DNA of 64,000 nucleotides from assembly GCA_040753215.1 (NCBI GenBank), contig JBFMEZ010000013.1:18911-82910 (forward strand). Reading direction: 5' to 3'. The position numbers and the translations under genes are program-made. Positions 27,304 through 64,000 of this stretch are shown piece by piece (position 1 is the first letter of the stretch; each line of letters opens with the position of its first letter). The notes below the pieces were generated by a model that saw nothing but the letters and a program-made list of their open reading frames with translations, had not been told where the DNA came from and made no database searches. This DNA is from Candidatus Micrarchaeota archaeon (GTDB taxonomy: Archaea; Micrarchaeota; Micrarchaeia; Anstonellales; Bilamarchaeaceae).

Positions 27304-28167
27304 CTACCTAATTTCTCTTGCCATCTTCCAGTAATGGTAGTTTATCGGAAGCGTGATAGTGAGCTTTATGCTTATGTATGCAACCAGGACTGCAAACAGA
27401 TAAACGGTTCCGGCTGCAATCAGCACGATATTCAGTGCCGCATTGCCTGCCGCAAGCGCAATCCATATGCCTGCAAGGAGCGGCACAAGGATTAGTATCG
27501 CTGCGGGAATGAGCAGAACCAACTGCACTATTGTTGAGAATATCCCCCCGATTATGTGGAAGAGGAATGTCTCCAGCAGGGTTCTTTTCACTATCCCGGC
27601 GGAGTTTTCTATGCTCCGTACCACTGCTGCCCTTGCAACCACAAGCTCGAAAAGCGCAAACTGCAGGACAAATCCGATAACGAACAAAGCCGCGTAATAG
27701 TAGAACTGGGAAGCGAGGCTGAGCGCTATGGAGGCCAAGACATTTCCGCTTGTCTCCCCAAGGACCCTTGCAACCAACGAAGGGAGAAAGACAAAAATCC
27801 CGATTATAAGCCAGAGGATTGTTGTATATGCTGCAACCGGAAGGAGGTTTTTTCCGAAATCGCCCAGCACTTCGTGCCTTGCCCCGGAAATCTCTTCATC
27901 GATAATATTGTAGGACACGCTTGATGCGGCGGCTGAAACCAGCACGAACACCAGCATCGCAAAGGCTCCGGCAGCAACGGCTGCGATGGGTTCCCCTGCC
28001 CCGGCTCCCGCGGTTATGACAAGGAATCCTGCGATTACGGAAACCGCAACAAAAGCGAATGCAAGCGCATTCACCTTCAGGAATTCCCTTAAGATTCCTT
28101 TCCAGTGCGCTCCGGTGAGAGAGAATCCCCTCCTGAATGCTTCTGTTATCATGTTCAGGTTCGCCAT
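27304..28167 (-). CDS. multi-pass membrane protein
   Basis: Five to six TM helices; SI..S..IVK motif typical of DUF7544/glycerophosphodiesterase-membrane-like proteins. Confidence 0.75.
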   Translation of the reverse strand: MANLNMITEAFRRGFSLTGAHWKGILREFLKVNALAFAFVAVSVIAGFLVITAGAGAGEPIAAVAAGAFAMLVFVLVSAAASSVSYNIIDEEISGARHEVLGDFGKNLLPVAAYTTILWLIIGIFVFLPSLVARVLGETSGNVLASIALSLASQFYYYAALFVIGFVLQFALFELVVARAAVVRSIENSAGIVKRTLLETFLFHIIGGIFSTIVQLVLLIPAAILILVPLLAGIWIALAAGNAALNIVLIAAGTVYLFAVLVAYISIKLTITLPINYHYWKMAREIR

Positions 28168-28218
28168 AGGCCCGTTTCCGAATTTCCAATTAAAAATCTA
28201 TACGCACAATCTTTTCCC

Positions 28219-29088
28219 ATGCACATCCTTTTCTCCTCCAAAAACCCTGCAAGCAACAATATTGCGCAGAGGCTCATGGAGATGGGCTTCAGCGAAGTTT
28301 CCGGTTCTCCGTATCCAGCTTCCAGAACGGGAAACTCAAACCGTGAAGCCCTGGGAAACCAGGGAAACGAAAGGGCGGCTTCACGGTTTGACAGGGAACA
28401 GGAAACCGGATACTGGGCTTGGAAAGGCCACAGGATGCTGGACACAAAGGTCGGGCTTATCCTTGATGTGCCCACGGATTGGGATGCGGATTGGCTTTTG
28501 GTGCTCTCCACGCACAGAAGCGAGAAGAAATTCCCCGCATTTACTGTGCACATTCCGGGCAACTGGGACAAGGCGGAGATGGGAGGCGAGCCCCGCACCC
28601 TCAACATTGCGTATGCGAGCAGGATGAAGGATTTGCTTCTTGCGCTTAGGGAGAAGAATACTCTGGGGTGGAATGTGAACCAAGAGGTCGACCATCATGG
28701 CCCCACCTGTAAACTTCCGATAATATTCATAGAAATAGGGAGTTCGGAGGAGGAATGGGTGAACCCTAAGGCGGCGGAAATAGTTGCGGAAGCGGTGATA
28801 GATTCCATAAATGAGAAGAAGCTCTATCCATCCTATGTTGGAGCGGGAGGGGGGCATTATGCGCCCTTCTTCACGAAATTGATGCTGGAATCCGAGGATG
28901 CGTTCGGGCACATAATTCCAAAATACCAGGCGGCGAACATCGGTGCGGATACGCTGAAGCAAGCGAAGGAGAAGAATGTGGAGAGGGTGGATACGCTGGT
29001 TTATGAAAACAAATCCTTCAGGGCAGGCGAGCGGGACAGGTTGTTTTCGATAGCGAAAGAGATTGGGCTGGAAGTTGAGATTCGCTAG
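28219..29088 (+). CDS. dtdA: archaeal D-aminoacyl-tRNA deacylase carrying an in-frame repeat insertion
   Basis: S..NPAS.NI, LSTHRS...P.FTVH.PGN, EVDHHGPT, F.EIGS.EEEW, GGGHYAP.F, GHI.PKY. Confidence 0.93.
   Translation: MHILFSSKNPASNNIAQRLMEMGFSEVSGSPYPASRTGNSNREALGNQGNERAASRFDREQETGYWAWKGHRMLDTKVGLILDVPTDWDADWLLVLSTHRSEKKFPAFTVHIPGNWDKAEMGGEPRTLNIAYASRMKDLLLALREKNTLGWNVNQEVDHHGPTCKLPIIFIEIGSSEEEWVNPKAAEIVAEAVIDSINEKKLYPSYVGAGGGHYAPFFTKLMLESEDAFGHIIPKYQAANIGADTLKQAKEKNVERVDTLVYENKSFRAGERDRLFSIAKEIGLEVEIR
28336..28391. repeat. palindromic element, subfamily A copy 1 (intragenic, in frame)
   Basis: TCAAACCGTGAAGCC-26 nt-GGCTTCACGGTTTGA, perfect 15-bp inverted repeat. Confidence 0.9.
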
Positions 29089-29642
29089 CCGAGTCCTGCC
29101 TTTATCTTTTCCAGAAGCATTTCGAATTTCGTATAGCCTGCCTTTTCGTTGAAATGCCCCGCGCTCTTTACAAGAATGATTTCCGTGCCCAGGTTCTTCG
29201 CCAGCTCTTCCGCCTTTTCCAGGGGAACGTATGGGTCGTTATCAGAGTGGAAAACATAGAACTTTTTGCAGTTGTCCCTTATCGCCTTCCAATCGAACTT
29301 TTTTTCAACGAATGTGGTCATTATCTCAGCAAACTCATTTTCGGGAAGAGAACAAAATCCAGCAACAAAGAATGCGGCTTTTGCAGGCTTTCTCTCCAGC
29401 ACGCTGAGCAGGAACGGAACCCCCAGACTATGCCCCACAACTATGGAATTCCCATCGATGTATTTCTCATAGTCCTGAAAAACCTTCAGCCATCTTTCCA
29501 GCGTCTGGTTTTCCGGCGTGGGAAATTTCGGAACAAATACTCTGCAGCCCAGCTTTTCAAGTTCGGATTTCAGCCACGGAAACCAGTTCTCACCCGGGTA
29601 GCCGTAAGCCCCGTGGATTATGAATATGTTGCTCTTTGCCAT
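29085..29642 (-). CDS. YdeN/RBBP9-family alpha/beta hydrolase
   Basis: IHGAYG....NWFPWL, GHSLG, HSDNDPYVP, AGHFN. Confidence 0.93.
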   Translation of the reverse strand: MAKSNIFIIHGAYGYPGENWFPWLKSELEKLGCRVFVPKFPTPENQTLERWLKVFQDYEKYIDGNSIVVGHSLGVPFLLSVLERKPAKAAFFVAGFCSLPENEFAEIMTTFVEKKFDWKAIRDNCKKFYVFHSDNDPYVPLEKAEELAKNLGTEIILVKSAGHFNEKAGYTKFEMLLEKIKAGLG

Positions 29643-29695
29643 CGGCTGGTGTTTGCACCCAACCTATAAAAACCAGCATCCCGGGAACCGGAAAC

Positions 29696-29752
29696 TCAAA
29701 CCGTGAAGCCCTGAGAAAAAGAGGGAAACGAATGGGCGGCTTCACGGTTTAA
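29696..29752. repeat. palindromic element, subfamily A copy 2 (intergenic)
   Basis: TCAAACCGTGAAGCC...GGCTTCACGGTTTAA flanked by GGGAACCGGAAAC and CCGAAAACTGAAA. Confidence 0.9.
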
Positions 29753-29766
29753 CCGAAAACTGAAAA

Positions 29767-29872
29767 TAGCCCCGACCGGATTCGAACCGGTGTCCGAAGG
29801 TCCAGAGCCTTCTTTCAGGACCGGGGTGGCTCGCGCCGCCCGGGTTATCCTTGACCACTAGACGACGGGGCT
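29767..29872 (-). tRNA. tRNA-Gln(CTG) with a 33-nt intron at about position 25/26
   Basis: AGCCCCG/CGGGGCT acceptor stem, GAAGG-CTCTGGA-CCTTC anticodon arm, ACCGG-TTCGAAT-CCGGT T-arm; 106 nt = 73 + 33. Confidence 0.92.
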
Positions 29873-29880
29873 AGCGTTAC

Positions 29881-30450
29881 TTAAAGCGTTAAAACCTTTC
29901 TTAAATCTAACTCTCCGGGCTTCACAATCACAGTCTTCACTTCCGCGCTCTCCCCCGCACCTCTGTCCCAAAAACTGTCCCCTATGAATACCACATCCTC
30001 CCTCCCAAACCCAAGCTCATCCATCAGGCTGAAAATCATATCCGGGTGCGGCTTCGCTTTTTGCACGACGTTCCTTCCTCTTATCGCATCCACCTCAAAC
30101 CCGGCCTTCTCCGCAATCCCCTGTATCAAAGGCACATTATTGTTAGAAGCAATCCCAACCTTGTGCCCGCGCTTCTTAAGCTCCTTCAGGATCTCCCTCG
30201 CCTGTGCGTAGATGAGATATTCGGAATTATCCAGGCATTCCTTTTCATATTTCCAGAAAATCCCGTCCACAACCTTCTTCCTTCCCAGTGTATCGGAAAC
30301 CTGGTTTGCGAGAAGGGCGATGTGGGTTTTGGGGTCCAGCTCTAGCCCTTCCTTCAGCCCGTATTCCAGCACTTCCTGCTTCACCACGTCCCAGTCTATC
30401 CACAGGTGGGCAAGCGTATCATCCAGGTCGAAAATGAATAGCTTTGGCAT
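29881..30450 (-). CDS. HAD-superfamily hydrolase
   Basis: FDLDDTL, ASNN, KPHPD, IGDS..D. Start moved to MPKLF because the ORF-track extension overlaps tRNA-Cys. Confidence 0.92.
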   Translation of the reverse strand: MPKLFIFDLDDTLAHLWIDWDVVKQEVLEYGLKEGLELDPKTHIALLANQVSDTLGRKKVVDGIFWKYEKECLDNSEYLIYAQAREILKELKKRGHKVGIASNNNVPLIQGIAEKAGFEVDAIRGRNVVQKAKPHPDMIFSLMDELGFGREDVVFIGDSFWDRGAGESAEVKTVIVKPGELDLRKVLTL

Positions 30451-30451
30451 T

Positions 30452-30550
30452 AGCCAGGGGAGGGAATCGAACCCCCCTATGCCGGTTTCTTCTGTGGGAT
30501 TTCTCCCCCTGGAGCTGCAGCCGGCCACATAGCCTATCTGTCACCCTGGC
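30452..30550 (-). tRNA. tRNA-Cys(GCA) with a 28-nt intron at 37/38
   Basis: GCCAGGG/CCCTGGC acceptor, U discriminator, GCCGG-CTGCAG[intron]A-CCGGC, TTCGATT T-loop. Confidence 0.92.
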
Positions 30551-30652
30551 AGGCCAGTTTCCGGTTTCCAGTTCCCGGTTTCCAGAATCTGGCCTGGCAA
30601 TACTCTGGTGGGATTAAGGTATTAAAAAGCTACGCCGCTATTTTACCCTGCT

Positions 30653-30758
30653 GGGCCCATAGCTCAGGCTGGTTAGAGCGACGGTCTTATATGGCCTGCT
30701 CTAATACAACAGGTTCTAAGACAGCCGTAGGTCTGGAGTTCAAATCTCCATGGGCCCA
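30653..30758 (+). tRNA. tRNA-Ile(TAT) with a 31-nt intron at 37/38
   Basis: GGGCCCA/TGGGCCC acceptor, ACGGT-CTTATA[intron]A-GCCGT, BHB central helix CTTA/TAAG, TATTAAAA box about 25-33 nt upstream. Confidence 0.93.
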
Positions 30759-31172
30759 ATCTCATTAATTTTGTTGCCGGTTTCCGGTTTCCCGTTTCCG
30801 GAAACTACGTCTGCAAAATTAGGTTTTTCTATTTCCTTTTTTGGCTTGTTTTTGGGGGGTTTCAAATATCTTGGGTTTTGGGCCCTACGGTTTTTGAAAT
30901 CCATATGTTTTTCACCTCATTTCTTGATATTTTTTCTTGATGTTTTTATACTTTTAGGGAGCATGTTTCCGATTAACACGCTCCGCTAGGCACGCCTGTT
31001 GCACGAGACGCGTCAGGCAACGGCCGAAAAAGCCTAGCGCGGAGCCGGTTTCACCTTATAACGTTCTGTATCGCTTCGCGATAACTGGCAGAAACCAGCG
31101 GGTTTCCGCCATCCGGTTCCTTGCTTTGGGGCTTATTTCAGCCTCAATCCATTCCAATTTCAAATTTCCTAG

Positions 31173-31610
31173 CTAATCATCGTCATCACCCCCACTTATC
31201 GCGTGTTTGAGCTTGCAAAGCATCGAACGGACACGCACTAGGCAAGACATGAAATTGAGATGCTCCCTCTGCGGGATGATTTTCAGGGAATTGCACAAGT
31301 CGAGCCAATATTCGGTTTCGTTGGCTTCGCCTATGCAGGTAACCAGCTTCTGGTTCTGTGCCTTCTTGGAATCAATCGCTCCCATCTCCGCCAGGTTCGC
31401 GCAGATGGAAGACGCGGAGGCAAGGAGCTGCTCCTTCGCCCTCCTGCTCATCTGCTTGTCTTCCATAAACTCAAAAATATCTTTTGACAGGCGGAAAGCC
31501 TCCTCATAAACCTTCAAATTCTTGAAGTTCTGCATAACCTCACCATTTTCCGACTTCGCGGCTCTGCTCGTAGAGCGCCCATTTCCTTTCATCAACCTCA
31601 ATTTTCCCAT
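31173..31610 (-). CDS. four-helix-bundle protein (TIGR02436 / IVS-protein-like family)
   Basis: FKNLKVYEEAF.LS, EQL...ASSICANLAE, ..GEANET.YWLDLC. Confidence 0.9.
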   Translation of the reverse strand: MGKLRLMKGNGRSTSRAAKSENGEVMQNFKNLKVYEEAFRLSKDIFEFMEDKQMSRRAKEQLLASASSICANLAEMGAIDSKKAQNQKLVTCIGEANETEYWLDLCNSLKIIPQREHLNFMSCLVRVRSMLCKLKHAISGGDDDD

Positions 31611-31662
31611 TTTCTTCCATGTTTTTCACCACTTCCCTTCCCCGGCTTCTCCTTTCGGGGAA

Positions 31663-31943
31663 GTTTTAGAGCGAGCTTCACTCCGAAGCCCGCGGTTTGA
31701 CGTTTTACGGGCTGAAAGGAGTGAAGCGAGCAAAACTTTCCCACGTCGCAGAAGCAGAGGTCGCTCGTTCGGTGTGAGCGATTATTCGTTTAGGCGAAGC
31801 CGACCTCGGAGCGAAGGCGAAAATGCACATTAATGGTTTCGGTCATTAGACCGAACCCGAAGGGCTCGACCATTAAGTGCTTTTCGCCGAAGCGGAGAGG
31901 GAAACGATTAATGCGAGCACGCCGGAAGGCGAGAACGAGCGAC
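31663..31943. other. highly structured non-coding region (nested inverted repeats; possible ncRNA or MITE/REP-like element)
   Basis: GCTTCACTCC/GGAGTGAAGC (31675-31727); GTCGCTCGTTC/GAACGAGCGAC (31760-31943) enclosing GGCGAAAA..GCAC..TTAATGGT/ACCATTAAGTGCTTTTCGCC and TTCGGTC/GACCGAA. Confidence 0.75.
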
Positions 31944-33124
31944 TATATCACTGAAAGACCGCCAACAATTCTCTTGGTTAAGTCCGATATCCGAGAAAAT
32001 TCCTTATCAACTATCTGCCCGATGGCTTCCCTAATCGAATTAAAGCATTTTCTGCCCGTGCTTAATGAAATTGTTGCATTTGCAGGCATGTCAATAGGAT
32101 GCCCAATTCTTGAAAGCAAATAAACATCTACATTTTCTACAAATGGGAATTCTCTTACAACCCTTTCAGCGATTTCAAATGCAAGAACCGAGTAGATTTT
32201 TCCAGTATGGCTTACCGGATTTTTGCCAGCAGTCGCTTCTAATGTCATCGGCCTGAAAGGAGTAATCAATCCGTTTGCACGGTTCCCTCTCCCGACCGAG
32301 CCATCGTCACCCATCTCCGCACTCGTACCGCTCAAAGTCAGGTATATTGAACCGGCTTCTTCATTATCCGCATTGTTTACCTTTACTCTTACATTTCCGA
32401 TTTCTCTGGTTTCGGCAAAATCTATCACCTCGCGCTCTATGGTCTTTTTGGCTTCTATGTATTCATCCATATTCGTTATATGCCTGGAAACAATCGCAAT
32501 TGCAATAGTAAGCTCTATCCCATCACCGTTTCGCAATCCCATTACCTTTACATCCTCGCCCGCCCAAGGGTATCTCGCCTTAAACTGTTCCGCGTTCAGA
32601 TATTTCTCAACTTCCAATACCAGTTTTTCGAGCCTGCTTAGTGGTGCATAGCCAACCCCAAAACTCGTATCATTGGCTAGTGGAATGCCCGGTCTTCCTG
32701 ACATCTCATCCCACTTCGGCCAGATCTCAGTGATGGTGGATTGTATCGCTACGCCCTTGGAAAGGTCCAGATGCCTTACGCTCCTTCTGATGTGCTCTTC
32801 GGTTGCTTCTCTTGCGATTTCTTCCACAGGAACGCCCCCAAATGCCCTCCCGCTTAATACTATCCGAATTGGTTTCGTAAACCGCCCGCCCCCGAATTCC
32901 ACTTCCGTTGCACCGCCACATACCAGCCCCTTATCCACATTATGATGCCTTACCCTGCTGAATTTGTTGATGTATGCTTCACTTAGGCGACGGCTTACGT
33001 TTTCCATTATGCCGTCTATCAGCGTATCTGGATGGCCGATGCCCTTCCGCTCGACCATTTCAACAGGTCGCTTATGTATCGTTGTCCCGCTGTTCCTTTC
33101 AACAATTATACTTCTCACGTGCAT
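31943..33124 (-). CDS. mat: archaeal-type S-adenosylmethionine synthetase
   Basis: EMVERKGIGHPDT, HHNVDK, P.ANDTSFGVG, GEDVKVMG.R, YLT..GTSAE.GDDG.VGRGNR, AGKNPV.H.GKIY. Confidence 0.96.
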   Translation of the reverse strand: MHVRSIIVERNSGTTIHKRPVEMVERKGIGHPDTLIDGIMENVSRRLSEAYINKFSRVRHHNVDKGLVCGGATEVEFGGGRFTKPIRIVLSGRAFGGVPVEEIAREATEEHIRRSVRHLDLSKGVAIQSTITEIWPKWDEMSGRPGIPLANDTSFGVGYAPLSRLEKLVLEVEKYLNAEQFKARYPWAGEDVKVMGLRNGDGIELTIAIAIVSRHITNMDEYIEAKKTIEREVIDFAETREIGNVRVKVNNADNEEAGSIYLTLSGTSAEMGDDGSVGRGNRANGLITPFRPMTLEATAGKNPVSHTGKIYSVLAFEIAERVVREFPFVENVDVYLLSRIGHPIDMPANATISLSTGRKCFNSIREAIGQIVDKEFSRISDLTKRIVGGLSVI

Positions 33125-34134
33125 CCCTCTTCCCGGAAAGGCTCATGGATGACCATGAAGCCTCGGTTAGTGCCAAAGTAAACATTGCAGCGCATTGTGG
33201 CGTCGCCCAATTCCATCGTACGATGAAGCATCCCCCTTTCTATGCGCTCAAAATGCACATACGAACCGGTATGAAATCCTTCATTTTCTATATAGAAATT
33301 CACAACGACATTGCAGCCCTTATCAAGCAGCTGTTGCACAGCATCCGAAGCTTTCCCTGGGCATGGCCTTCCCATGCAGAAATCGCAGTAGCAGAGTTCG
33401 GCATCATCCGGTTTTCGTGTGGCGCAAGCCAAATCGCTTTGCAGATATACTGCCGTTTCAGGAGCCGCCCCATAGATTCTCTCAATTAGTTTTAGCCATG
33501 CAGCCAGTCTTTTTGTGTATTCCAATACAAGGCCAGCGTTTGGTTTGCTAATGTCCGTAGAATCGACCGAAGCTTCATTATCTGGGCAAATCGAGACTAC
33601 TGATTGGATGCCTCTCCTCTCGGCTACGCCCGCCAAAGTAAGCCCGATGCTTGCCATGGCATTCAGGATTCGCTGATGGTAGAGTGCAAGGTCAAGCCTG
33701 CGAATGCCCGACTCCCTAGTTCCTTCGAAGCCGAGGGCAATGCGTCCTTCATGCTCGCTCAACTGTTGCCCATTTTTCCTTTTTTCTATCACGTCCTTAT
33801 ATTTTGAAGCATACTTCCTGAGGCCTGTGGCTATTGCTACCGAAGGATTCCCAATCTGTACCCCAAGTTTTGAGCCGGCGGGAACACGCCTTAGGAGCGG
33901 CTCGAAATCCGTTTCGACCTTCACCTGCAATGGACTCTTGAATTCTACCCCAACTGGATTGCCATGCTGCACAAATGCGGCAGTAAACAGGCAGGCAAGC
34001 ATCCTTTCTGGGTTTTTTTCTTCTACCGGCTCCTGTTTGCTGAAATAAAAGGCTTTGATCCTGCCTCTCTCGCACAATTCCCTTGCCTTATGCATCGCTT
34101 GCATCATTAACACCCCGAAGCACTCCATTCTCAT
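33115..34134 (-). CDS. hypothetical protein (possible degenerate PRTase-like alpha/beta fold)
   Basis: Operon position between the PLP enzyme and mat; VSICPDNE and AVQQLLDKGCNVV only weakly PRTase-like. Confidence 0.6.
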   Translation of the reverse strand: MRMECFGVLMMQAMHKARELCERGRIKAFYFSKQEPVEEKNPERMLACLFTAAFVQHGNPVGVEFKSPLQVKVETDFEPLLRRVPAGSKLGVQIGNPSVAIATGLRKYASKYKDVIEKRKNGQQLSEHEGRIALGFEGTRESGIRRLDLALYHQRILNAMASIGLTLAGVAERRGIQSVVSICPDNEASVDSTDISKPNAGLVLEYTKRLAAWLKLIERIYGAAPETAVYLQSDLACATRKPDDAELCYCDFCMGRPCPGKASDAVQQLLDKGCNVVVNFYIENEGFHTGSYVHFERIERGMLHRTMELGDATMRCNVYFGTNRGFMVIHEPFREEGCT

Positions 34135-35086
34135 CGAAATAGATTCCAGAGCCGCTGTTTACCACCAGCACAGATTTATCCGATGGAATGGCGGTCTTCC
34201 TTGCAGCGGCGAATGCCACAGCAGCACTTGGCTCCGCCTTTATGCCCACTTTCTTCAGCGCAAGATATGCTGGCATGATTTCGTCTTCTTCAACTACAAC
34301 CACTTCGCCGAATTCAGGGAGAGTCCTCACTATTCTCTCAAACAATTCGGACCAAGGCGTGACCAGCTTTTCTGCAATTGAGCAGGCACCTGGAGCCGTA
34401 TCACCAGCGAATATGTTGGCCCCCACGGTCGCTGCGAACAGCCGCGGCAGATTTTCTCCGGCTCTGTGCAGTTCATCAAGAAGATATAGCAGAGAATTTA
34501 CCGCCTCTCCCCCGCCCAGAGGCATGAAAATGGCATCTGGTTTTTCAGCAACAACCTCTTCTGCAAGGTGCATATAGCTAAATGCATAATTCTCGGCATC
34601 TATGCAATCCCTTTTGTCGTCCTTTATCCCGGTTTTTGCTGCTTCTAAAATTTCCTGCCGTGTGAAAATCTTTTTTTGCAATGGCAATCTTACAAGAACA
34701 GAATGCCTTTCAAGCACTTTCTGTATCCTAAGGTCCAGCTCTTCGTCTATTATGCTTACCGCAAGGACGCCATCTTCCCTGGCAACTTCGTTGATTTGGT
34801 TGTACTCATCCGCCACATTCCCAAGGCTGTGGCCTGCGGTAGTGTAGACTATAGAGTATAGAGCAGGGTTTCTCGCCCCAAAATCATTCACCAGCCTTGC
34901 ACTGCGGTAGTCCTTGAATGTGCCCGAAGAAAAACCGCCCGAGGTCCGAACCGCACTGCAATCTTTTATCAGCAGGTTATTTTTTCCGCAGAATTCTTCC
35001 ACACTAGGGTTTCTAAGAACTGGCGCAGGAACTATAACGACTCCTTTTCTCTCCATACGTTTGCTCATCATATCATCAATTATCAC
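34088..35086 (-). CDS. PLP-dependent fold-type II enzyme (threonine synthase/cysteine synthase-like)
   Basis: SGTFKDY Schiff-base Lys motif, TTAGHSL, PLGGGE phosphate loop, EPSAAVAFAA, VNSGSG. Confidence 0.85.
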   Translation of the reverse strand: MIIDDMMSKRMERKGVVIVPAPVLRNPSVEEFCGKNNLLIKDCSAVRTSGGFSSGTFKDYRSARLVNDFGARNPALYSIVYTTAGHSLGNVADEYNQINEVAREDGVLAVSIIDEELDLRIQKVLERHSVLVRLPLQKKIFTRQEILEAAKTGIKDDKRDCIDAENYAFSYMHLAEEVVAEKPDAIFMPLGGGEAVNSLLYLLDELHRAGENLPRLFAATVGANIFAGDTAPGACSIAEKLVTPWSELFERIVRTLPEFGEVVVVEEDEIMPAYLALKKVGIKAEPSAAVAFAAARKTAIPSDKSVLVVNSGSGIYFDENGVLRGVNDASDA

Positions 35087-35167
35087 AAACGATTAATATA
35101 AAATCTACCATCAATTTTTCTGACAAAAATGGTTAATAATTTAAATTATTACATCTATGTCCTAATA

Positions 35168-36157
35168 ATGCCTTACAAGATTGATAACATAGACCGACGA
35201 ATCCTCTTTGAGCTCGACAAGAATTGCCGGATAAGCGACAACCAGATTGCTAAGCTTGTTGGCAGGAGCAGGGAGTCTGTCGGCTATAGAATCAAACAGC
35301 TTCAAAAGAAAGGCATACTGCAAGGTTTTCTTACGTCCATAAACCCCAGCAAATATGGCTACATGTTCTTCAAGCTGTATTTTCAGCTTGCAAACATCCC
35401 GAAGGAACGTGAGCGGTTTTTCGAGTATATGAAGAAATTGCCTGGCCTATACTGGATAGGGATTAATGATGGTGTCTGGGACACCCATGCAACCCTGTAT
35501 GCCAAGAATGTAAAGGAATTTTATAAGATAAAAAATCAGATTTATTCGGAGTTCAAGGATTTGATAATCAAGCGGGATACCGGAGTTTTGGTTAATGTAA
35601 GGCAGTACAAGAAAAAATACCTCATAGAAGATGGGAGCAAAATACCGGATTATGATTCTTGTGTCATGTTTTCAGATGATATTGTTCCTAACGAAATTGA
35701 CGAGCTTGACAGAAAAATCCTCAATATACTGCTGAACAATGCCAGGATTCCACTTGTGGATCTGGCCAAACAAACCAAATCTACGGTTGATGTAGTCCGA
35801 AACAGGATGAAGAAGTTGCAGGAAAAGGGAATAATCCTGCAATACAGAATTGCAGTGGACCATTCAAAACTCGGTTATGAATTTTTCAAGGCTTTTCTGT
35901 ACTTTAACAACCTTAGCGAAGAAGACGAGCAAAGATTGTTCGAATATGCAAAGGGGCATCCGAGCATCATATATCTCATAAGGCAGGTTTCAAGCTGGGA
36001 TGTTGAGCTGGAGATGGTTTGTAAGAGCTACGAAGATTTCACTTCCATCATGAACGATATTCGAAAAAGATTCGCAACCTCTTTGAGAAACTATGAATCT
36101 GTCTTTATGAAGGAGGATATCTGGGTGTTTGGCGAGAAGGATATTTTTGAAAAATAA
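35168..36157 (+). CDS. tandem-duplicated Lrp/AsnC-family regulator
   Basis: Two units, IDNIDRRIL.EL..NCR and IDELDRKIL..L..NAR, each with HTH and RAM domain. Confidence 0.92.
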   Translation: MPYKIDNIDRRILFELDKNCRISDNQIAKLVGRSRESVGYRIKQLQKKGILQGFLTSINPSKYGYMFFKLYFQLANIPKERERFFEYMKKLPGLYWIGINDGVWDTHATLYAKNVKEFYKIKNQIYSEFKDLIIKRDTGVLVNVRQYKKKYLIEDGSKIPDYDSCVMFSDDIVPNEIDELDRKILNILLNNARIPLVDLAKQTKSTVDVVRNRMKKLQEKGIILQYRIAVDHSKLGYEFFKAFLYFNNLSEEDEQRLFEYAKGHPSIIYLIRQVSSWDVELEMVCKSYEDFTSIMNDIRKRFATSLRNYESVFMKEDIWVFGEKDIFEK

Positions 36158-36160
36158 AAT

Positions 36161-36189
36161 GAGCGCCGGAAGGCGAGAACGAGCGACTA
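36161..36189. repeat. partial copy of the 3' end of the 31760-31943 structured element
   Basis: GAGCGCCGGAAGGCGAGAACGAGCGACTA matches about 31915-31945 except for a 2-nt gap. Confidence 0.85.
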
Positions 36190-36221
36190 CAATCGGTTTG
36201 ACAGAACAATCAGAAAAGTAG

Positions 36222-36878
36222 CTATGGAACAGCTGGGTCAATCAAATTCTTCTGTTCAGGTGTGCCGAGATACTCCTGTTTTGCCTCGTTATCAAATTCC
36301 GGCCTTATCATTTTTGCACGGAGCTGAGCAGAAAGGGAGAGTTCCCTTTCGGGCTTTATCACTAAGCCCTCCATGGCGGAGTTTCTTCCTGTGATTGGAT
36401 CCACTGCGTATGCTGATGTAATAGACATCAGAGGAGAAAGCTCGGACGCGTCACGGAAATTTCCTGATGCAACTATTGGCACCGGGAAGAAATCTGCCGG
36501 AACCGTGTCCGGTACGCACAACAGCCCTTTGCGTATATCGGATGATAGATGCATTCTGCCTTCCGAATCAAGGAAAACCTCTTTTTCCATGTCAAAAATG
36601 TCAAAAACCGCATATCTGCCCGGGATTCTATAAAAAACTGAACGCATCACGAGCAAATCTTCTGCAAAGACAAGGTATCTGCACCCTGCAAGGAATGCGC
36701 GCGGCTCTCCGTCCATCTTTTCTTCCACAACTACTTTCCTTGCGAAAAGTGCGCGAAGCTGTTCCGGAGTCAGGTGGTTTTTTGTCAGCGGCATCCCATC
36801 TGCAGCGATTCTCCTTGGCTTGAAATACCGCACCTGCGGGAACCTATGGTCGCATAAAATGCCGTTGTCGTTATACAT
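36222..36878 (-). CDS. RNA ligase family (Rnl2-like adenylation domain)
   Basis: Motif I EEKMDG, FAE, FDIFD, motif IV EGLVIK, motif V RAKMIRPEF. Confidence 0.88.
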   Translation of the reverse strand: MYNDNGILCDHRFPQVRYFKPRRIAADGMPLTKNHLTPEQLRALFARKVVVEEKMDGEPRAFLAGCRYLVFAEDLLVMRSVFYRIPGRYAVFDIFDMEKEVFLDSEGRMHLSSDIRKGLLCVPDTVPADFFPVPIVASGNFRDASELSPLMSITSAYAVDPITGRNSAMEGLVIKPERELSLSAQLRAKMIRPEFDNEAKQEYLGTPEQKNLIDPAVP

Positions 36879-36888
36879 CGCAATCCCT

Positions 36889-37830
36889 TCATAGTTCTGG
36901 CAGCGAAAGAGTGGGCTCTTCCTTGCTTACACGCTTGGCTGCAGGATAGTAGCGTCTTATGGCCTCCAGAACCATCTTTGTCTGGACAATGCGCTCCCTT
37001 AACTCTTCTTCAGTAGGCAGATGGTTCTGGTCCTGTTGGGAAACCGGACCGCATTTCAGATAGACTGGAGAAGCAATCCTGATAAACTCCGGAACCTCGT
37101 ATGTTCTTATGAAACCTCCTGCCACAAGCGCAGTATCTGTGAATATATCTATCGGACAATCAATTGCAGCCCTTATCGCGCCAAGCATTGGCAGTTCCAG
37201 GTCAGGGACTGGGTTTATTGTATCTGCCCCATTTTGTGCGTATACCGCACAAGAAGCTGGATTGGAGCAGCCACAATGAACCGAGAGCTTGAAGATTGTG
37301 CTAGGAGGGAGTTCTCCATCTTTTCTCATGCGGTTCAGGACATGCAGCAGTCCTTCATCATAAACAAGGATGCCCCTTACTCCCAGCCCGATGACCCTTT
37401 TCACGTCTTCTACGGCCCTTACGAGATTTTCCATTCCCCTAAGCCTATACCCTATTCTTGAGCCGTTGGGCGTTTTTGCGAAGGCGCTGGTGTCATAAAG
37501 AGCCCTCGGGCCAACGGACATCACGAGGCCGATCCTGTTTTCCCTGCACAGCTTTGCCATTTCTAAGATTTCCTTGTCCGTAAGCCGGAATATTCCTCTG
37601 CACTCATCAAACCTGTCCGCAGAAATGCCCTGCTCACCGAGCAATCGGAATGCCCTCTTCATAATCCTGAGATTGTTCATGCTGGAAAGTTCTATCCCAT
37701 ACTGCCCGCCCCTGGAAAATGCCTTCCTGGAAGGGGGCAGCCCGTAAAGGTCGGAAGGCGGCAGGCCCAATTTCCGCAGGTATCGCCGGGTATCCCTGCC
37801 CACCAGAAGTGCAACAGAACTCTTCGTCAT
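36889..37830 (-). CDS. U32-peptidase-like TIM-barrel protein of unknown function
   Basis: LP.S.K.F..G.QY.IE, L.D.EI.EM, VGPRA.YD, RG...L..AVEDVKR...LGVRGILV.DEGLL, NPAS, PVYLK.G. Confidence 0.8.
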   Translation of the reverse strand: MTKSSVALLVGRDTRRYLRKLGLPPSDLYGLPPSRKAFSRGGQYGIELSSMNNLRIMKRAFRLLGEQGISADRFDECRGIFRLTDKEILEMAKLCRENRIGLVMSVGPRALYDTSAFAKTPNGSRIGYRLRGMENLVRAVEDVKRVIGLGVRGILVYDEGLLHVLNRMRKDGELPPSTIFKLSVHCGCSNPASCAVYAQNGADTINPVPDLELPMLGAIRAAIDCPIDIFTDTALVAGGFIRTYEVPEFIRIASPVYLKCGPVSQQDQNHLPTEEELRERIVQTKMVLEAIRRYYPAAKRVSKEEPTLSLPEL

Positions 37831-39329
37831 CTCGCCACCATCCCGATTCTTTCCCTGTTAAATTTTCCCTTCAGGAAATATTTCGCAAAGATGCGGAAAT
37901 AGAACGCGTCCTCCTTCGTCCGTATTGAGAATTCAGGATACGCAGACCTTATATCTGAAAACTCTCCATCCGAAAGCCTGCTGACCAATTTCGCATATTC
38001 ATCCTGCTCAAATTCCCTTCTCCTGCCTGCACCGACCGGAAAGGGGCACTTCTCCCTGCCTATAACGAACTCCGGGACTTCACTCCTGAATGCTTCCCTC
38101 AAAATCCATTTCGTAGTGTTGTTGTGCACTTTCAGAGAAGGGGGCAAGCCCATGGCATACTCAACCAGCTCTTTATCCAAAAATGGAACCCTCACCTCGA
38201 CCCCGTGCGCCATGGACATCCTGTCCACCCTCTGCAGCTGCGTCCTATGGAGAAGGCGCAGATATTCCATCAGCCTGGCCTGCAACTCAGCTTCGCTCCG
38301 GATTTGCCTGAACTCAGAATAGCCTCCAAATATCTCATCCGCACCTTCTCCAGAGAGGGCGACCTTTATCCCGCAATCGTGGACCATCTTTGCAAGATAA
38401 TAAGATAATCCAAGCGTATTGACCTGGTTTGGCTCAAAGGTTTCACCAAAATAGATGAACATTTCAAGCTCTTTTTCAACATCAATCATCTTCGGATCAA
38501 ATACCTTCAACTCAACCCCGAAATATTCCGCAACTCTCCTTGCATATGACAAATCTTCTGAGCCATTCCCGCCAACGCAGAAAGCCGTAACATCCTGATG
38601 GCATTCCAGTGCGTATTTCAATACAAGCGTGCTGTCAACCCCTCCGCTAACCAAAACCGCAACAGGCAGGTCGATCTGAACCCTTTTTCTGACCGCTTCG
38701 CGGAAAAGGGTCCTGAGCCGCTTTTTGATTTCCCCAGGCTCTTCCGGAGGCTTGCTGCCTTGCATCCGGAAATACCTGTGTATTTTCCCATCGAGAAAGC
38801 AGGCGCCTGGCTCCAGAACCTTTATCTCTTCTGCATTGAGATGCGCCAGCGCCTTCATCTCAGAGGCAAAAGCCATGCAGCCATCCATTTCAGCGTAGTG
38901 GAACGGCTTTATCCCGAACGGGTCCCTTGCCGCAAGGATTACATCTTTCCTGGAGTCGTAGATGATGAAGGCAAACTGCCCATCCAGCTTCTGAAGCAGA
39001 TCCGGCCCCCATTCTTCATATCCATGCACCAGCACTTCAGTATCCGAGTCGGTCCTGAATCCATGGTTCCCCAGCAAGCTTCTAAGCTCTCCATGATTGT
39101 AGATTTCCCCGTTGAAAACAACGAAAATAGAATTGTCTTCATTCGGCATTGGCTGCCTCGCGTTTTCCCTATCCACTATCGCAAGCCTATGGGCGCCCAG
39201 AAGGCAATTCTTCAGCATCCTGCACTCATTCTTCTTATCGCCCCTGTGCTCCATCGCGCCCAGCATGCTGGCTAGCAGCTCTCTCTTTTGCATTGCTTTA
39301 TGGCCACATACTGCAGCTATCCCGCACAT
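37827..39329 (-). CDS. asnB: asparagine synthetase B-like glutamine amidotransferase
   Basis: MCGI Ntn Cys, HRG.D, RLAIVD, FNGEIYN, SDTEV, RD.FGIKP, SGGVDS, GEGADE.FGGY, E.RVPFLD. Confidence 0.95.
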   Translation of the reverse strand: MCGIAAVCGHKAMQKRELLASMLGAMEHRGDKKNECRMLKNCLLGAHRLAIVDRENARQPMPNEDNSIFVVFNGEIYNHGELRSLLGNHGFRTDSDTEVLVHGYEEWGPDLLQKLDGQFAFIIYDSRKDVILAARDPFGIKPFHYAEMDGCMAFASEMKALAHLNAEEIKVLEPGACFLDGKIHRYFRMQGSKPPEEPGEIKKRLRTLFREAVRKRVQIDLPVAVLVSGGVDSTLVLKYALECHQDVTAFCVGGNGSEDLSYARRVAEYFGVELKVFDPKMIDVEKELEMFIYFGETFEPNQVNTLGLSYYLAKMVHDCGIKVALSGEGADEIFGGYSEFRQIRSEAELQARLMEYLRLLHRTQLQRVDRMSMAHGVEVRVPFLDKELVEYAMGLPPSLKVHNNTTKWILREAFRSEVPEFVIGREKCPFPVGAGRRREFEQDEYAKLVSRLSDGEFSDIRSAYPEFSIRTKEDAFYFRIFAKYFLKGKFNRERIGMVAR

Positions 39330-39430
39330 TTTACCACTATTAATAAACATCCAGAGCTTATTTTATGCTTTATCCTCCCAAAAGAGACTATTAAGCAAAC
39401 AATTAAATACCCGGAAAGGGAAAACAAACC

Positions 39431-40159
39431 ATGGACATTTCGATAATGGAAGACCTCGGGCTTACGCAGGCGGAAATCAAGGTGTATATGGCACTACTGG
39501 AGCTTGGAAGCACGACCGCAGGAAAGGTGGTGGAGCGCTCAGGGCTCCAGAACTCGGTCGTGCACAGGGCACTGAACTCCCTTATAGAAAGGGGGCTGAT
39601 AAATTACATACTCGAAGGAAGAAGGAGGACCTACCAGGCCACTGACCCAAAGAACTTCTTCAATTTCATAGAAGACAAGAAGAAGAGGTTTGAGCAGGTA
39701 CTGCCCGAATTGAAAAAGAAACAGCAGCTGGCAGGGAAAAAGGAAGTTGCGACCGTATATAAGGGGCCGAGGGGGCTAAAGGAGGTCTACAATACGATAA
39801 TCGGCAGCAAGGCGAAAGAATACCTCACTTTTGGGGGAGGGAAGCCATGCGAGGATTTGCTTGGGACTGCGTGGTGGCTGAACATGCATAAGAGAAGGGT
39901 TGCGAACGGGCTTCCCGCCCGGCAGATTTACGATGAGACGGTGAGGGAAATAGGAAAGGAGGTAAATAAGATGCCGTTGTCCGAAGTGCGCTTTGTTTCC
40001 AAGGAATTCGCGCAGCTGCAGGAAACGGTAATCGCAGGGGATTACGTGGCGATTAATGTGTTCACCGAGAGCCCCTATGGCTTCCTTATAAGGGACAGGA
40101 TAGTGGCAGATGGGTACAGGAAGCATTTTGAGCTTCTTTGGAAGCTGGCAAAGAAATAA
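39431..40159 (+). CDS. TrmB-family transcriptional regulator
   Basis: LGLT.AEIKVY.ALLELG, VHRAL..L.E.GL, YQA.DP, G..GLKEV, F..LW. Confidence 0.9.
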   Translation: MDISIMEDLGLTQAEIKVYMALLELGSTTAGKVVERSGLQNSVVHRALNSLIERGLINYILEGRRRTYQATDPKNFFNFIEDKKKRFEQVLPELKKKQQLAGKKEVATVYKGPRGLKEVYNTIIGSKAKEYLTFGGGKPCEDLLGTAWWLNMHKRRVANGLPARQIYDETVREIGKEVNKMPLSEVRFVSKEFAQLQETVIAGDYVAINVFTESPYGFLIRDRIVADGYRKHFELLWKLAKK

Positions 40160-40162
40160 AAC

Positions 40163-40181
40163 GAGCACGCCGGAAGGCGAG
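40163..40181. repeat. third partial copy of the structured-element 3' end
   Basis: GAGCACGCCGGAAGGCGAG, identical to the 3' part of the 31760-31943 element, 3 nt after the TrmB stop. Confidence 0.8.
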
Positions 40182-40258
40182 GAAAAAGTTTGGAAACTTT
40201 GTCCGCTACTGGAAATCCCGGATTCCCGATTCAAGAATGAGAGACTATATCCTATCCT

Positions 40259-40284
40259 CATTAGTGAGAGAGTTCTCACTAATG
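40259..40284. terminator. perfect hairpin between convergent units
   Basis: CATTAGTGAGA-GAGT-TCTCACTAATG. Confidence 0.45.
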
Positions 40285-40492
40285 TTAGTCCCGGACTTCA
40301 TATGCAATTAGATTATCAAATTCCCGGTTTCTGCAGTAAGGCAGGGATGCGGCCAGATCTATTGCTTCTTCCTTCGAACCCGCTTCCACCCTACCGATAA
40401 CGACCGCATCTTCGGTTTCCCCGAACGCCATTCTTCATCAGAAATTCGGTTCTGACCGATTTTCCAACTTCCAATACTATGTAGTTTGCCAT
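40285..40492 (-). pseudogene. possible small ORF broken by a single-base frameshift
   Basis: MANYIVLEVGKSVRTEF in one frame continues as ..AFGETEDAVVIGRVEAGSKEEAIDLAASLPY... in the +1 frame; 208 nt = 69 codons + 1. Confidence 0.3.
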
Positions 40493-40501
40493 GCGAACAC
40501 C

Positions 40502-40630
40502 TCAACCCGCCCGCTTCGGTCCGCGCCTTTCCAATTTTTCCATCCAGGCATTTATGTACAAGAGCGAGGCTTCTTCCCAGTCCGCGAACTCAGCTTTCAT
40601 TTCTCGGATTTCTTTTTTTGAAGGTTTCAT
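40502..40630 (-). CDS. 42-aa small protein coupled to the AlbA_2 ATPase gene
   Basis: ATGA overlap with the upstream stop; MKPSKKEIREMKAEFADWEEASLLYINAWMEKLERRGPKRAG. Confidence 0.45.
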   Translation of the reverse strand: MKPSKKEIREMKAEFADWEEASLLYINAWMEKLERRGPKRAG

Positions 40631-41973
40631 TTCCCGACCACCTTCCAATACCCTCCCTTATCCGGCCCGAAGTGCCTTATTTTGCCCGCCTTCTTAAGCC
40701 TTTCAAGGTGGTATTTCACTCCATCTTCGGTGATTCCAATTATCCCGGCAAGCTCTTTGCGCGAAACCATCGGATTATTACTAATCGCCTCAAGGATTTT
40801 CTGGGTAGTTTTCTGGGTAGTTTTCTGGGTAGTTTCTGGGTGGCGCATCGAAGGCTTATGGGCCTTTGGCCTGAAGAATACAACCCTGAAACCAGTCTTC
40901 ATTTTCTTGAATTCCACTTTTACTCCATTTGCCTTGCACTCGTCATAAATCCTCTTCAGGCCGGAACCCCATCTCTCAATATCCTTGCTGCGGAAAAGCG
41001 CTTCTGCAATGAGAGGATTGCGTGGAATGGATGGCTCATTCCTGAATATGTAGTCCTCGGGCTCAAGATTTTCAGGAAACGTGCCCGGGTTGTCTATTTC
41101 TATGCGGTCTTTGTATATCGCGATATAATTGCTCTGCGGAGAGCTATAATCCCTATGGCATAGGGAATTCACTATGGCTTCACGAAGCGCATCCAGGGGT
41201 ATCTCCGGTATCTCTTCGCGCTCAAGCTTTCCGAATTTTACCCTCCAGGTGATATTCTTTTTGACGTACTCCGCCGAATCCTTCAGCAATCCAAACAAAC
41301 TCTGCCCCTCAAACTGCTGGATATCCAAGAAAGTGAGCTTCTCAACACCTGCAAAAACCGCCGCCTGCACTTTAACGGGGTTCTTGGAGGAAAAAAGGAC
41401 CTGCGCAGCCCGCAATACCCTTCCGTTTCTCATCAGCCCCAGCTTTCCAAGCGTGGCTTCCACGCTTTGGAAGCCAAAATCAATCCTTCCCGCTTCGTTT
41501 GCCTTTTTTACGAACTCCCTGGCGAGCCGGGAATCAATATCCTTAATGCTGCAATCCGACAATTGATTATCCCACTGCATCTTGTCCTTGTTCTTGTAAA
41601 GGATAAGTTTCTCCAGCTCTGAAGCGCTTACCTGGCGGTCCTCGTCGCCAACGCGCATATACGCCCTGCCAAATGCGAAATAAGGGCGAGCATCCCCGGA
41701 AAACGAAACGTAGATGCACTCAGAACCATCTATTTTCACCTTTTTTATTTCTGGGTATATCTTGGGTTCAATATTGTCTGAAATAAACTGCGAAACATCG
41801 CGGAGCGTCTTCTCATTAACCAGTTGCCCAACAACCTCCCCATCATTCTTTATTCCGAAATAAAGCTCACCGGCGCCATGCTTGTTCAGGATGGAAACTA
41901 TGGATATGGCTGCCTCCTTCAGTTCCGATGTGGACCTCTTCAACTCAAGAACCTCGTTCTCCCTAAACTTCAT
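40627..41973 (-). CDS. AlbA_2 (Schlafen-like) + HATPase_c_4 + C-terminal HTH protein
   Basis: E.E..ELKRS, N..GG.LYFG..NDG..VG, ALREA.VN...HRDY, I..NPG, RNP.IA, IERWGSG..RI; TTQK x3 linker. Confidence 0.92.
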   Translation of the reverse strand: MKFRENEVLELKRSTSELKEAAISIVSILNKHGAGELYFGIKNDGEVVGQLVNEKTLRDVSQFISDNIEPKIYPEIKKVKIDGSECIYVSFSGDARPYFAFGRAYMRVGDEDRQVSASELEKLILYKNKDKMQWDNQLSDCSIKDIDSRLAREFVKKANEAGRIDFGFQSVEATLGKLGLMRNGRVLRAAQVLFSSKNPVKVQAAVFAGVEKLTFLDIQQFEGQSLFGLLKDSAEYVKKNITWRVKFGKLEREEIPEIPLDALREAIVNSLCHRDYSSPQSNYIAIYKDRIEIDNPGTFPENLEPEDYIFRNEPSIPRNPLIAEALFRSKDIERWGSGLKRIYDECKANGVKVEFKKMKTGFRVVFFRPKAHKPSMRHPETTQKTTQKTTQKILEAISNNPMVSRKELAGIIGITEDGVKYHLERLKKAGKIRHFGPDKGGYWKVVGK

Positions 41974-42090
41974 ATTCCGGCCCTCCAGAAACTGCCGTGC
42001 AGCTTCTTTTATTCCATCGTTTAAAAAGGTTCTTGGGGTTCTTTTCCGTTATCAATTAAACCCCAGACTTCAGTTTGCCTTAATAGCAAA

Positions 42091-42112
42091 TGATAACATT
42101 TTTTTGTTATCA
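42091..42112. promoter_or_regulatory. 8-bp inverted repeat upstream of the AlbA_2 gene
   Basis: TGATAACA-TTTTTT-TGTTATCA. Confidence 0.45.
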
Positions 42113-42127
42113 ATTGTTATATATCGG

Positions 42128-42540
42128 TCAAATCCCCTCCTGCATCTTCCTCACCTTCTCCAGCAGTTCATCATTATTCGCCCTCTCAATGCTCTCATAA
42201 AGCTCGTTCTTTGCAGTATGCACGTAAATCATCGTAGTCTGCAAGTTCGTATGCCGTGCAAACTTTGAGGCCAGAGCCACATTCCCCCCATTCTTCCTGC
42301 AGAAATTAGTAATCGCATAATGCCGAAGGCTATGGGTGCTCAACCTATACAGCGTCTTAGGACTTTCCCCAACGCTGTACCCGTAAACCTCATCCAGCTT
42401 GGCCTTCTTCACGTATTTCATGAAAAATTTCCTTGCGGTCTGGGAGGTGATGTATGGCTTTGTCTTGTCTGTCTTCGTCCCCTCCTCAAGGGAGAAGAAG
42501 AGGCTGCCTTGCCGAAAGGGATTGCGCTCTGCTGCAATCC
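42128..42540 (-). pseudogene. tyrosine recombinase/integrase C-terminal fragment
   Basis: HSLRHYAIT box II, ARHTNLQTTMIY catalytic His/Tyr; box I Arg region missing; 5' side ends in a heptamer tract. Confidence 0.85.
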
Positions 42541-63999: not shown

Positions 64000-64000
64000 C

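Follow-up and report, generated by a model that had tools for sequence, protein, structure and literature searches.

The gene for the archaeal-type D-aminoacyl-tRNA deacylase (DTD2) of a Candidatus Micrarchaeota archaeon contains an in-frame insert of 39 codons made of repeat DNA. The gene lies in a stretch of 64,000 nt from the assembly GCA_040753215.1 (contig JBFMEZ010000013.1, positions 18,911–82,910, forward strand), and this whole stretch is called the window below. DTD2 quite probably carries here a translated and tolerated loop derived from a lineage-specific dispersed repeat, which would be read straight through and leave the enzyme unharmed. This reading is carried by the anatomy of the insert, the family of copies to which it belongs, its absence from close homologues, the empty sites in a related genome, the modelled fold, purifying selection on the gene and the presence of the same repeat, in frame, in two more genes.

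The DTD2 gene and its insert

28219–29088, plus strand: DTD2 (D-aminoacyl-tRNA deacylase, archaeal type), 289 aa plus stop, matching Pfam PF04414 and the structures 2gfq and 1yqe
28297–28413, plus strand: in-frame repeat-derived insert in DTD2, 117 nt or 39 codons, net gain of 34 aa over the closest homologues

Residues 89–286 of the protein align with positions 4–204 of the 205-position profile PF04414 (E 1.3e-60), and the PDB entries 2gfq (E 1e-44) and 1yqe, both DTD2-type structures, match it by sequence. Its start, MHILFSS, is common to homologues, and its best database relatives come from uncultured Micrarchaeota/DPANN archaea. The motifs THRS, HHGPT, EIGS and GGGHYA, which the original prediction made from the DNA letters had described as preserved, are all present. 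The catalytic mutant of DTD2 described in the literature is that of a histidine (PMC10942605). In an alignment of 97 sequences the window protein keeps all invariant columns (H99, H111, E156, D158, H159, H160, E172, H213, H231 and K235), and the invariant and nearly invariant residues of the family are kept on both sides of the insert. The reported catalytic histidine is presumably one of the HHGPT motif, far downstream of the insert in sequence. The Pfam catalytic domain begins at residue 89, and the insert lies outside it. Pairwise ratios of nonsynonymous to synonymous substitutions (dN/dS) are 0.08–0.11 against four relatives, with dS above 1, and therefore indicate that the gene is kept by purifying selection in one and the same frame before and after the insert.

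Translation of 28297–28413 in the DTD2 frame gives VSGSPYPASRTGNSNREALGNQGNERAASRFDREQETGY, exactly the 39 residues first listed, which confirms the predicted location, frame and residues of the insert within an intact gene. The size had been put at about 30–39 aa; this is correct for the new residues, but the net gain is 34 aa because the 39 residues replace about five ancestral ones.

The AlphaFold2 model, built with the 97-sequence alignment, has a pLDDT (predicted local distance difference test) of 90.9 and a pTM (predicted template-modelling score) of 0.87, and superposes on 2gfq and 1yqe with TM scores of 0.81–0.84 (Foldseek). The pLDDT is 47–54 at residues ~31–60, between the strands 25–27 and 65–68, and the insert is thus a low-pLDDT loop between two strands, at a site where length varies within the family. 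The modelling proposed as a check came out in favour of the prediction: the DTD2 fold is modelled as intact, and the insert forms a hairpin loop that is modelled as disordered and does not belong to the catalytic domain. The claim that a housekeeping enzyme tolerated a new loop made of repeat DNA is well supported by the homologues that lack the insert and by the intact modelled fold, and further by the dN/dS of about 0.1 and by the insertion of the same repeat, in frame, in two other genes.

Anatomy of the insert

28297–28328, plus strand: left heptamer unit, (GTTTCCN)x4 plus GAAC, degenerate (GTTTCCG GTTCTCC GTATCCA GCTTCCA GAAC), encoding VSGSPYPASRT
28329–28336, plus strand: heptamer GGGAAACT adjoining the palindrome, with the same junction in the copies 29683–29766 and 57269–57352 (in the latter as the reverse complement)
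28337–28390, plus strand: 54-nt palindrome with 14-nt perfect arms, CAAACCGTGAAGCC and GGCTTCACGGTTTG, and a 26-nt loop
28391–28413, plus strand: right GGAAAC-type tract ACAGGGAACAGGAAACCGGATAC, encoding DREQETGY, common to the tract-only inserts of the relatives L001 and L002

The left unit has the layout of the intergenic tracts described below. The arms of the palindrome occupy 28337–28350 and 28377–28390, and are 15 nt long and 100% complementary if the flanking T/A pair is counted, while the loop (28351–28376) contains GGGAAAC motifs. A heptamer tract, a palindrome and an inverted heptamer tract had been predicted, in this order; the components are there, but the order is different, as heptamers in the GGAAAC orientation flank the palindrome on both sides and only the far-left unit is the inverted GTTTCC. 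As RNA, the whole insert folds into a long hairpin of −59.4 kcal/mol (z −4.3).

The predicted translation of the insert includes the peptide TGNSNREALGNQGNER, and the added 34-aa loop is hydrophilic, with a grand average of hydropathy (GRAVY) of −1.44. A search of 5.8 billion proteins with the insert peptide found nothing similar, nor did a BLAST comparison of the insert with plasmids, and an Rfam scan of 28000–31200 at E values up to 1 found tRNAs only and nothing on the element.

Homologues without the insert and tract-only intermediates

In an alignment with 17 relatives, the closest homologues (81–85% identical, 253–255 aa) read GFSEKGESGWEW, where the window protein reads GFSE, the 39 residues and WAW. 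This alignment, which had been suggested together with the prediction, fixes the boundaries of the insert, with 41 residues between two conserved anchors in the window DTD2 versus 7 in the closest homologues. The prediction was also to be abandoned if homologues free of the repeat had a loop of similar length; the segment from the conserved F24 to W66 has 5–8 residues in 89 of the 96 homologues and at most 20 in any of them, versus 41 in the window, so this condition does not refute the prediction.

Two relatives, L001 and L002, which are independent assemblies from other samples (DRR490231 and SRR7615342), have an insert of 12–13 aa, VSG(K/T)..GRETGNAEQETGC, that consists of heptamers only and lacks the hairpin (L001 +39 nt, L002 +36 nt). 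These inserts reproduce both junctions of the window, AGCGAA followed by GTTTCCGG on the left, and the end of GGAACAGGAAACCGGAT on the right. Relative to L002, the window has gained 21 nt as three additional left heptamers and 50 nt by having the hairpin where L002 has GGAAACGC, and is short of 5 nt, which sums to +66 nt and keeps the frame. The DTD2 tract is thus present in the window, L001 and L002 and absent from L003 and L096. In the more distant homologues P0089 and P0095 this loop holds 20 aa of another, unrelated kind (VKKE..LG..MET), and it has therefore taken insertions more than once.

Copies of the repeat in the window

The 54-nt palindrome occurs exactly three times in the window (28337–28390, 29697–29751 and 57285–57338), each time flanked by heptamers. 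Its arm has seven matches with up to three mismatches, versus 1.9 expected; six are the arms of the three palindromes and one is a stray match at 15027. The sequence GTTTCCNGTTTCC, with up to one mismatch, is found 32 times versus 0.51 expected, an excess of about 60-fold, with 26 matches on the plus and 6 on the minus strand. There are about 14 tract loci, 11 intergenic and three intragenic, and the tracts are short arrays of a tandem 7-nt unit, scattered and mainly intergenic. The two further palindrome copies and the intergenic tracts are the following.

29683–29766, plus strand: second heptamer-flanked palindrome copy, intergenic, adjoining the 3' end of the apparently intron-containing tRNA 29767–29872 (minus strand)
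57269–57352, plus strand: third heptamer-flanked palindrome copy, in the divergent spacer between an RNase HI gene (start 57258, minus strand) and a bPH_2 gene (start 57396)
9388–9440, plus strand: heptamer tract, intergenic, shortly upstream of where an HMG-CoA-synthase-like gene (minus strand) truly starts (MVGIVGYG)
10339–10374, plus strand: intergenic heptamer tract between two minus-strand genes
30552–30587, plus strand: heptamer tract between divergent tRNA genes, adjoining the 5' end of the tRNA 30452–30550 (minus strand)
30768–30806, plus strand: heptamer tract ending in GTTTCCGGAAAC, 10 nt past the 3' end of tRNA-Ile, also present in L003
46983–47018, plus strand: heptamer tract between convergent TldD and carbohydrate-kinase genes, present in L003
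48629–48690, no strand assigned: inverted pair of heptamer tracts between convergent genes
49525–49560, plus strand: heptamer tract between two minus-strand genes, the L160 orthologues of which carry PRTase and OMP-decarboxylase domains
56820–56855, plus strand: heptamer tract between a convergent 415-aa open-reading frame (ORF) and RNase HI
62590–62620, plus strand: short tract GTTCCCGGTTTCCGGAAAC

In the third copy the stems and flanks match those of the DTD2 copy only as the reverse complement while the loop has the same orientation, so the loop is flipped relative to its flanks. All stand-alone tracts catalogued as bona fide loci have GTTTCC on the plus strand. Matches with GGAAAC on this strand belong to the hairpin flanks at DTD2 and 29683 and to the inverted pair at 48660; the others are a weak one at 42541 and one at 26957, which lies in a Band_7 gene and is judged to be native coding sequence. 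GC skew is negative throughout the window, and the co-orientation of the tracts is therefore inseparable from a general strand asymmetry. Two other candidates for insertions in coding sequence were rejected: the tract at 9388–9440 is not coding, as it is upstream of the true start, and 48499–48534 is no insertion, as it encodes PPIVVFGFLSSVSS, which is native and kept in the L003 orthologue.

A scan of IMG/VR for (GTTTCCN)3 found similar arrays in 61 viral contigs (L099–L159), some as inverted pairs and several per contig. Examples are the following.

L153, 8611–8669: array in a viral contig
L151, 7470–7517: array in a viral contig
L128, 4374–4400: array in a viral contig

These arrays provide no link to the archaeal lineage, as the G+C of the contigs tabulated is scattered (0.33–0.66) and the only context looked at resembles that of a bacterial phage.

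Empty sites and insertions in other genes

A 1.03-Mb contig of a related genome, L160, whose methylase orthologue is 84% identical, is syntenic with the window from 45 to 62 kb and is tract-free over 21 kb. Its spacers of 2, 11, 14 and 47 nt, or overlapping genes, are the same junctions as in the window minus the tract or hairpin element, and comparison with it shows that the element went in cleanly at seven window loci, which are very short spacers or genes. The hairpin copy at 57269–57352 is a clean insertion of ~84 nt relative to a 47-nt spacer, the tract at 46983–47018 one of ~36 nt relative to a 14-nt spacer, and that at 49525–49560 one of ~28 nt relative to a 2-nt spacer; at the site of 56820–56855 the orthologous genes overlap in L160. 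The pair at 48629–48690 sits in ~160 nt between convergent genes (48585–48752) that have no counterpart in L160; this segment also contains a short G/C-rich hairpin, GGGGAGGGCGCTCCCCC. No target-site duplication or defined ends were seen in the alignments of empty and filled sites, and the ends vary.

Two further tracts lie within genes.

51974–52009, plus strand: heptamer tract in an epimerase gene (51657–52589, minus strand), a 36-nt in-frame insertion encoding GGGETGSRKLET (+12 aa)
54918–54953, plus strand: heptamer tract in a methylase-like gene (54417–55565, minus strand), net +15 nt (+5 aa), encoding RKPETGNRKLT

Neither L160 nor any of 17 homologues, which are up to 83% identical, has the epimerase insertion, and it leaves a 10-aa gap in the alignment with PDB 3wj7. 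In the methylase-like protein, the L160 orthologue (84% identical) reads DKEAGRGK for RKPETGNRKLT, and more distant homologues agree with it. The empty alleles of all three intragenic sites are purine-rich GAA/GGA runs, which hints at microhomology.

The window, L001, L002, L003 and L096 are at roughly equal mutual distance, with 76–82% nucleotide identity. The tract between the divergent tRNA genes (30552–30587) is present in the window and L003 but not at the orthologous site in L096 and L001. The presence and absence of tracts across the five equidistant genomes fits no single tree, and repeated gain, loss or exchange is thus required.

Coding properties of the tract

When all cases are enumerated, (GGAAACN)n proves to be free of stop codons in all six frames, whatever the N, and yields one 7-residue periodic peptide (G-N-x-K-x-E-T) whichever frame is used; the length of an insert therefore only has to be a multiple of three. 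The GRAVY of the tract peptide is −2.3 with GGAAAC on the sense strand and +0.7, hydrophobic, with GTTTCC on it. The sense strand of every intragenic tract reads GGAAAC, with the sole exception of the mutated left arm in DTD2, which is without the consensus Phe and Val codons and encodes VSGSPYPASRT, not VSGFQFPVSRT. This pattern is what selective filtering of translated inserts would produce. All five insertion variants, those of the window DTD2, L001, L002, the epimerase and the methylase-like gene, are multiples of three and stop-free. An argument from heptamer conservation at synonymous sites was dropped, as the codon identity in the shared tract is 7/8 versus a gene background of 0.57–0.59 (p 0.07–0.10).

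Origin and spread of the insert

The proposed insertion site is a naturally length-variable β-hairpin loop in the N-terminal region of DTD2. The repeat family has two parts, short tandem tracts (GTTTCCN)3-5, often closed by an inverted GGAAAC, and the 54-nt hairpin, which is always embedded in heptamers. The insert probably arose in steps. A GGAAAC tract would first have entered a purine-rich run of loop codons, a state that survives in the 12–13 aa inserts of two relatives. In the window lineage the far-left heptamer would then have grown by three units (+21 nt), and a heptamer-flanked hairpin would have entered the tract. The tolerance would be partly inherent in the repeat, which is free of stops in six frames and gives the same peptide in any of them, and the outcome would be a disordered hydrophilic surface loop of 34 additional residues, as predicted by the model. 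Candidate means of spread are slippage combined with ectopic recombination between tracts, or a strand-specific single-strand transposition supplied in trans.

DTD2 offers a natural example of the origin of a new protein loop, in which the states without insert, with the tract only and with tract and hairpin all survive. A tract-free relative supplies the empty sites, and the repeat is coding-neutral in that it never brings a stop codon. It may be speculated further that the GGAAACN/GTTTCCN tract, with or without the hairpin, is an actively proliferating, strand-specifically inserting “loop cassette” of a reduced DPANN genome that repeatedly remodels protein surfaces, and that it is an archaeal counterpart of the palindromic elements of Rickettsia, minisatellite-like and possibly replication-coupled, not a classical transposon. 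This wider proposal, taken as a whole, is tentative and more doubtful than the tolerated loop itself; if it is true, dozens of genes with such loops are expected genome-wide.

Alternative explanations

The original prediction also allowed for removal of the insert at the RNA level, either as an archaeal bulge-helix-bulge (BHB) intron or by another excision from the mRNA, so that the protein would have the ancestral short loop. The long RNA hairpin formed by the insert would suit such a mechanism, as would the multi-domain splicing endonuclease encoded at 61014–62159 and three nearby tRNA genes, whose lengths of 99–106 nt suggest introns. Introns in mRNA are known in archaea, in cbf5 of Crenarchaeota, and a three-unit splicing endonuclease is reportedly tied to relaxed BHB specificity in ARMAN archaea. 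However, no BHB flanks the insert: a scan of 28240–28470 for the canonical motif only (3-nt bulge, 4-bp helix, 3-nt bulge) gave one weak match, at a background rate of about 3 per 230 nt, which does not keep the frame (137 nt) and whose excision would take conserved residues with it. Moreover, every intragenic variant is in frame and stop-free (L001 +39, L002 +36, epimerase +36 and methylase +15 nt), which a spliced element needs in neither respect, and the tract-only inserts form no hairpin whatever. RNA-level removal is thus unlikely, and its probability is put as very small. An artefact of assembly, in which a metagenomic contig would have been chimerically joined at a repeat, is equally improbable or slightly more so. 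The segment is built of repeats found elsewhere on the same contig and the exact protein is absent from the protein collection, but both flanks carry on the same gene in the same frame, both junctions recur in the two independent assemblies, and the DTD2 copy is no pasted duplicate, since its loop and flanks are unlike those of the two other copies. Inactivation and decay of DTD2 after a large insertion near the N-terminus of a small enzyme, which could disrupt it, has likewise hardly any probability, given the open full-length frame, the conserved residues, the low dN/dS and the confidently predicted fold. An intein was rejected, as the protein contains only PF04414 and 39 aa are too few.

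A somewhat stronger rival, although still improbable, is that the element is kept for a function of its own, be it a new interaction of DTD2 or a DNA or RNA hairpin with a heptamer array acting as a cis-element, such as an array for protein binding or a structure for regulation, within the coding sequence. Tracts are found at syntenic intergenic sites in the window and L003 despite dS above 1, the stand-alone tracts lie nearly all on one DNA strand whatever the direction of transcription, several adjoin tRNA genes, and a regulatory role has been suggested for the heptamer repeats dispersed in Xanthomonas and Nostoc (PMC4692102). Against this, the shared tract codons are not identical significantly more often than those of the gene at large, the left arm has decayed from the consensus, the insert peptide is predicted to be disordered and is without homologue, and most close relatives lack the insert.

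Several points weigh against the preferred reading, a tolerated loop from a dispersed repeat. The window DTD2 protein is not in the protein collection, and the insert therefore rests on one assembly; a search of public sequencing runs found none holding the window sequence. The palindrome was found nowhere outside the window in the GTDB species genomes, the JGI metagenomes and the protein collection: its arms gave only chance palindromes in unrelated bacteria among the GTDB genomes, and a tighter pattern gave seven unrelated hairpins, all without heptamer flanks, among the JGI contigs. The order of events is uncertain because the distribution of tracts fits no single tree. Lastly, neither a transposase nor a target-site duplication, nor clear terminal inverted repeats, came to light; the element can thus be called only putatively mobile, and the description of the insert as “selfish DNA” in the original prediction is an inference.

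Exact-protein look-ups of window proteins gave no match. The epimerase from the same contig (P0121) is present in the protein collection, unlike the window DTD2. The original gene caller may have missed or split DTD2 on account of the repeat insert, and repeats of this kind are liable to mislead gene callers in DPANN genomes assembled from metagenomes.

Neighbouring genes and other features of the window

In the relatives L003, L096 and L097 a LAGLIDADG_3 gene lies between DTD2 and a HAD hydrolase; in the window this position (29085–29880) is occupied by a Ser_hydrolase gene, the second hairpin element and a tRNA gene. The three tRNA genes near DTD2 are at 29767–29872 (minus), 30452–30550 (minus) and 30653–30758 (plus), and their lengths imply introns. 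ARAGORN detected one of the three and the Rfam gathering threshold one, the other two appearing only in a scan by E-value. Repeat elements adjoin three of the six tRNA ends. The splicing endonuclease at 61014–62159 has 381 aa, and its Pfam match consists of two stretches of the N-terminal domain and one catalytic domain, in which it resembles the three-unit enzyme of ARMAN/Micrarchaeota. L160 and the contig of P0124 have a second, short endonuclease gene nearby.

The segment of about 28000–44000 has a lower G+C (0.48 versus 0.53–0.57 elsewhere) and is possibly an integrated island. It holds a phage-integrase fragment (42131–42607, minus), a Schlafen/AlbA_2-HATPase-wHTH protein (40630–41973, minus) and, within 43251–44600, an element of the IS200/IS605 family with TnpB only (OrfB_IS605 and a Cas12f1-like TNB domain; 43290–44561, minus). 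The end hairpins of this element are CCACCGGTC(AAA/GCA)GACCGGTGG; they are unrelated to the palindrome, and the element was rejected as a parent of the repeat. Its right end is present a second time (103 nt, 92% identical), from 63801 to beyond the end of the window (63801–64000). No TnpA or RAYT gene is present among the 24 ORFs scanned, a minority of the window ORFs. The low-G+C segment also contains all copies of a second small repeat family with the core CGCCGGAAGGCGAG(A/G)A (31899–31945, 36149–36189 and 40147–40184), one pair of which shares 26 nt at 100% identity.

Comparison with known systems

The insert is similar to the archaeal BHB introns, such as that of cbf5 in Crenarchaeota, in being an extra structured segment within an archaeal coding sequence, the genome having many apparent tRNA introns and encoding a splicing endonuclease of several domains. 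It differs from them in that it has no canonical BHB at its boundaries, is in frame and stop-free, and has hairpin-free variants in relatives.

MITEs (miniature transposable elements with inverted repeats), the repetitive extragenic palindromes and bacterial interspersed mosaic elements (REP/BIME) and the palindromic elements derived from IS200/IS605 are likewise small, non-coding, multicopy DNA containing hairpins. From the biology of IS200/IS605, an orientation bias would fit single-strand, replication-coupled insertion. Unlike MITEs, the repeat shows no target-site duplication or defined terminal inverted repeats, and no parent element with matching ends was seen, the TnpB element being the only insertion sequence seen in the window.

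The tracts resemble dispersed heptamers known from bacteria, with the unit GGGAATC for Xanthomonas and GGGGA(T/C)T for Nostoc, as far as these are described in PMC4692102, where heptanucleotide repeats of Calothrix are also cited. Both are short tandem arrays of a 7-nt unit (~3–8 units), scattered and mostly intergenic near gene ends, with some inverted pairs and a minority within genes. The unit here is GTTTCCN, which is a poor G-quadruplex former because its G-rich strand has only GG runs. The Xanthomonas repeats are split about equally between the strands while the tracts here are strongly co-oriented, and the in-frame coding use seen here is not emphasised in that source for the Xanthomonas and Nostoc repeats.

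The nearest likeness in the way of working is to the Rickettsia palindromic elements (RPEs), which are multicopy hairpin repeats found in frame in housekeeping genes of a reduced-genome host (Ogata 2000, 2002, as reported in PMC10969869). As described there, an RPE, like the element in DTD2, is a multicopy hairpin repeat of ~100–150 nt, present in intergenic positions and also, in frame, within housekeeping genes of unrelated kinds; it adds a peptide compatible with the fold and occurs in a reduced-genome, host-dependent microbe. The window repeat is a dispersed multicopy hairpin-former, in frame in conserved genes and missing from their orthologues. Its host belongs to another domain of life, and the repeat is taken to work like an RPE, not to be a member of the RPE families. 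The architecture differs: an RPE is described as one long palindrome with a conserved peptide, whereas the repeat here is mostly a tandem 7-nt minisatellite with a nested small hairpin, present in only three hairpin copies, and tract-only insertions outnumber those that contain the hairpin. A limited search of the literature turned up no account of elements of this kind in Micrarchaeota, which speaks only weakly for there being none. The entry of non-coding repeat DNA into conserved genes, in frame, was first described in Rickettsia and is met here in a small-genome archaeon, where the repeat would likewise become part of proteins; the case is interesting and not without precedent.

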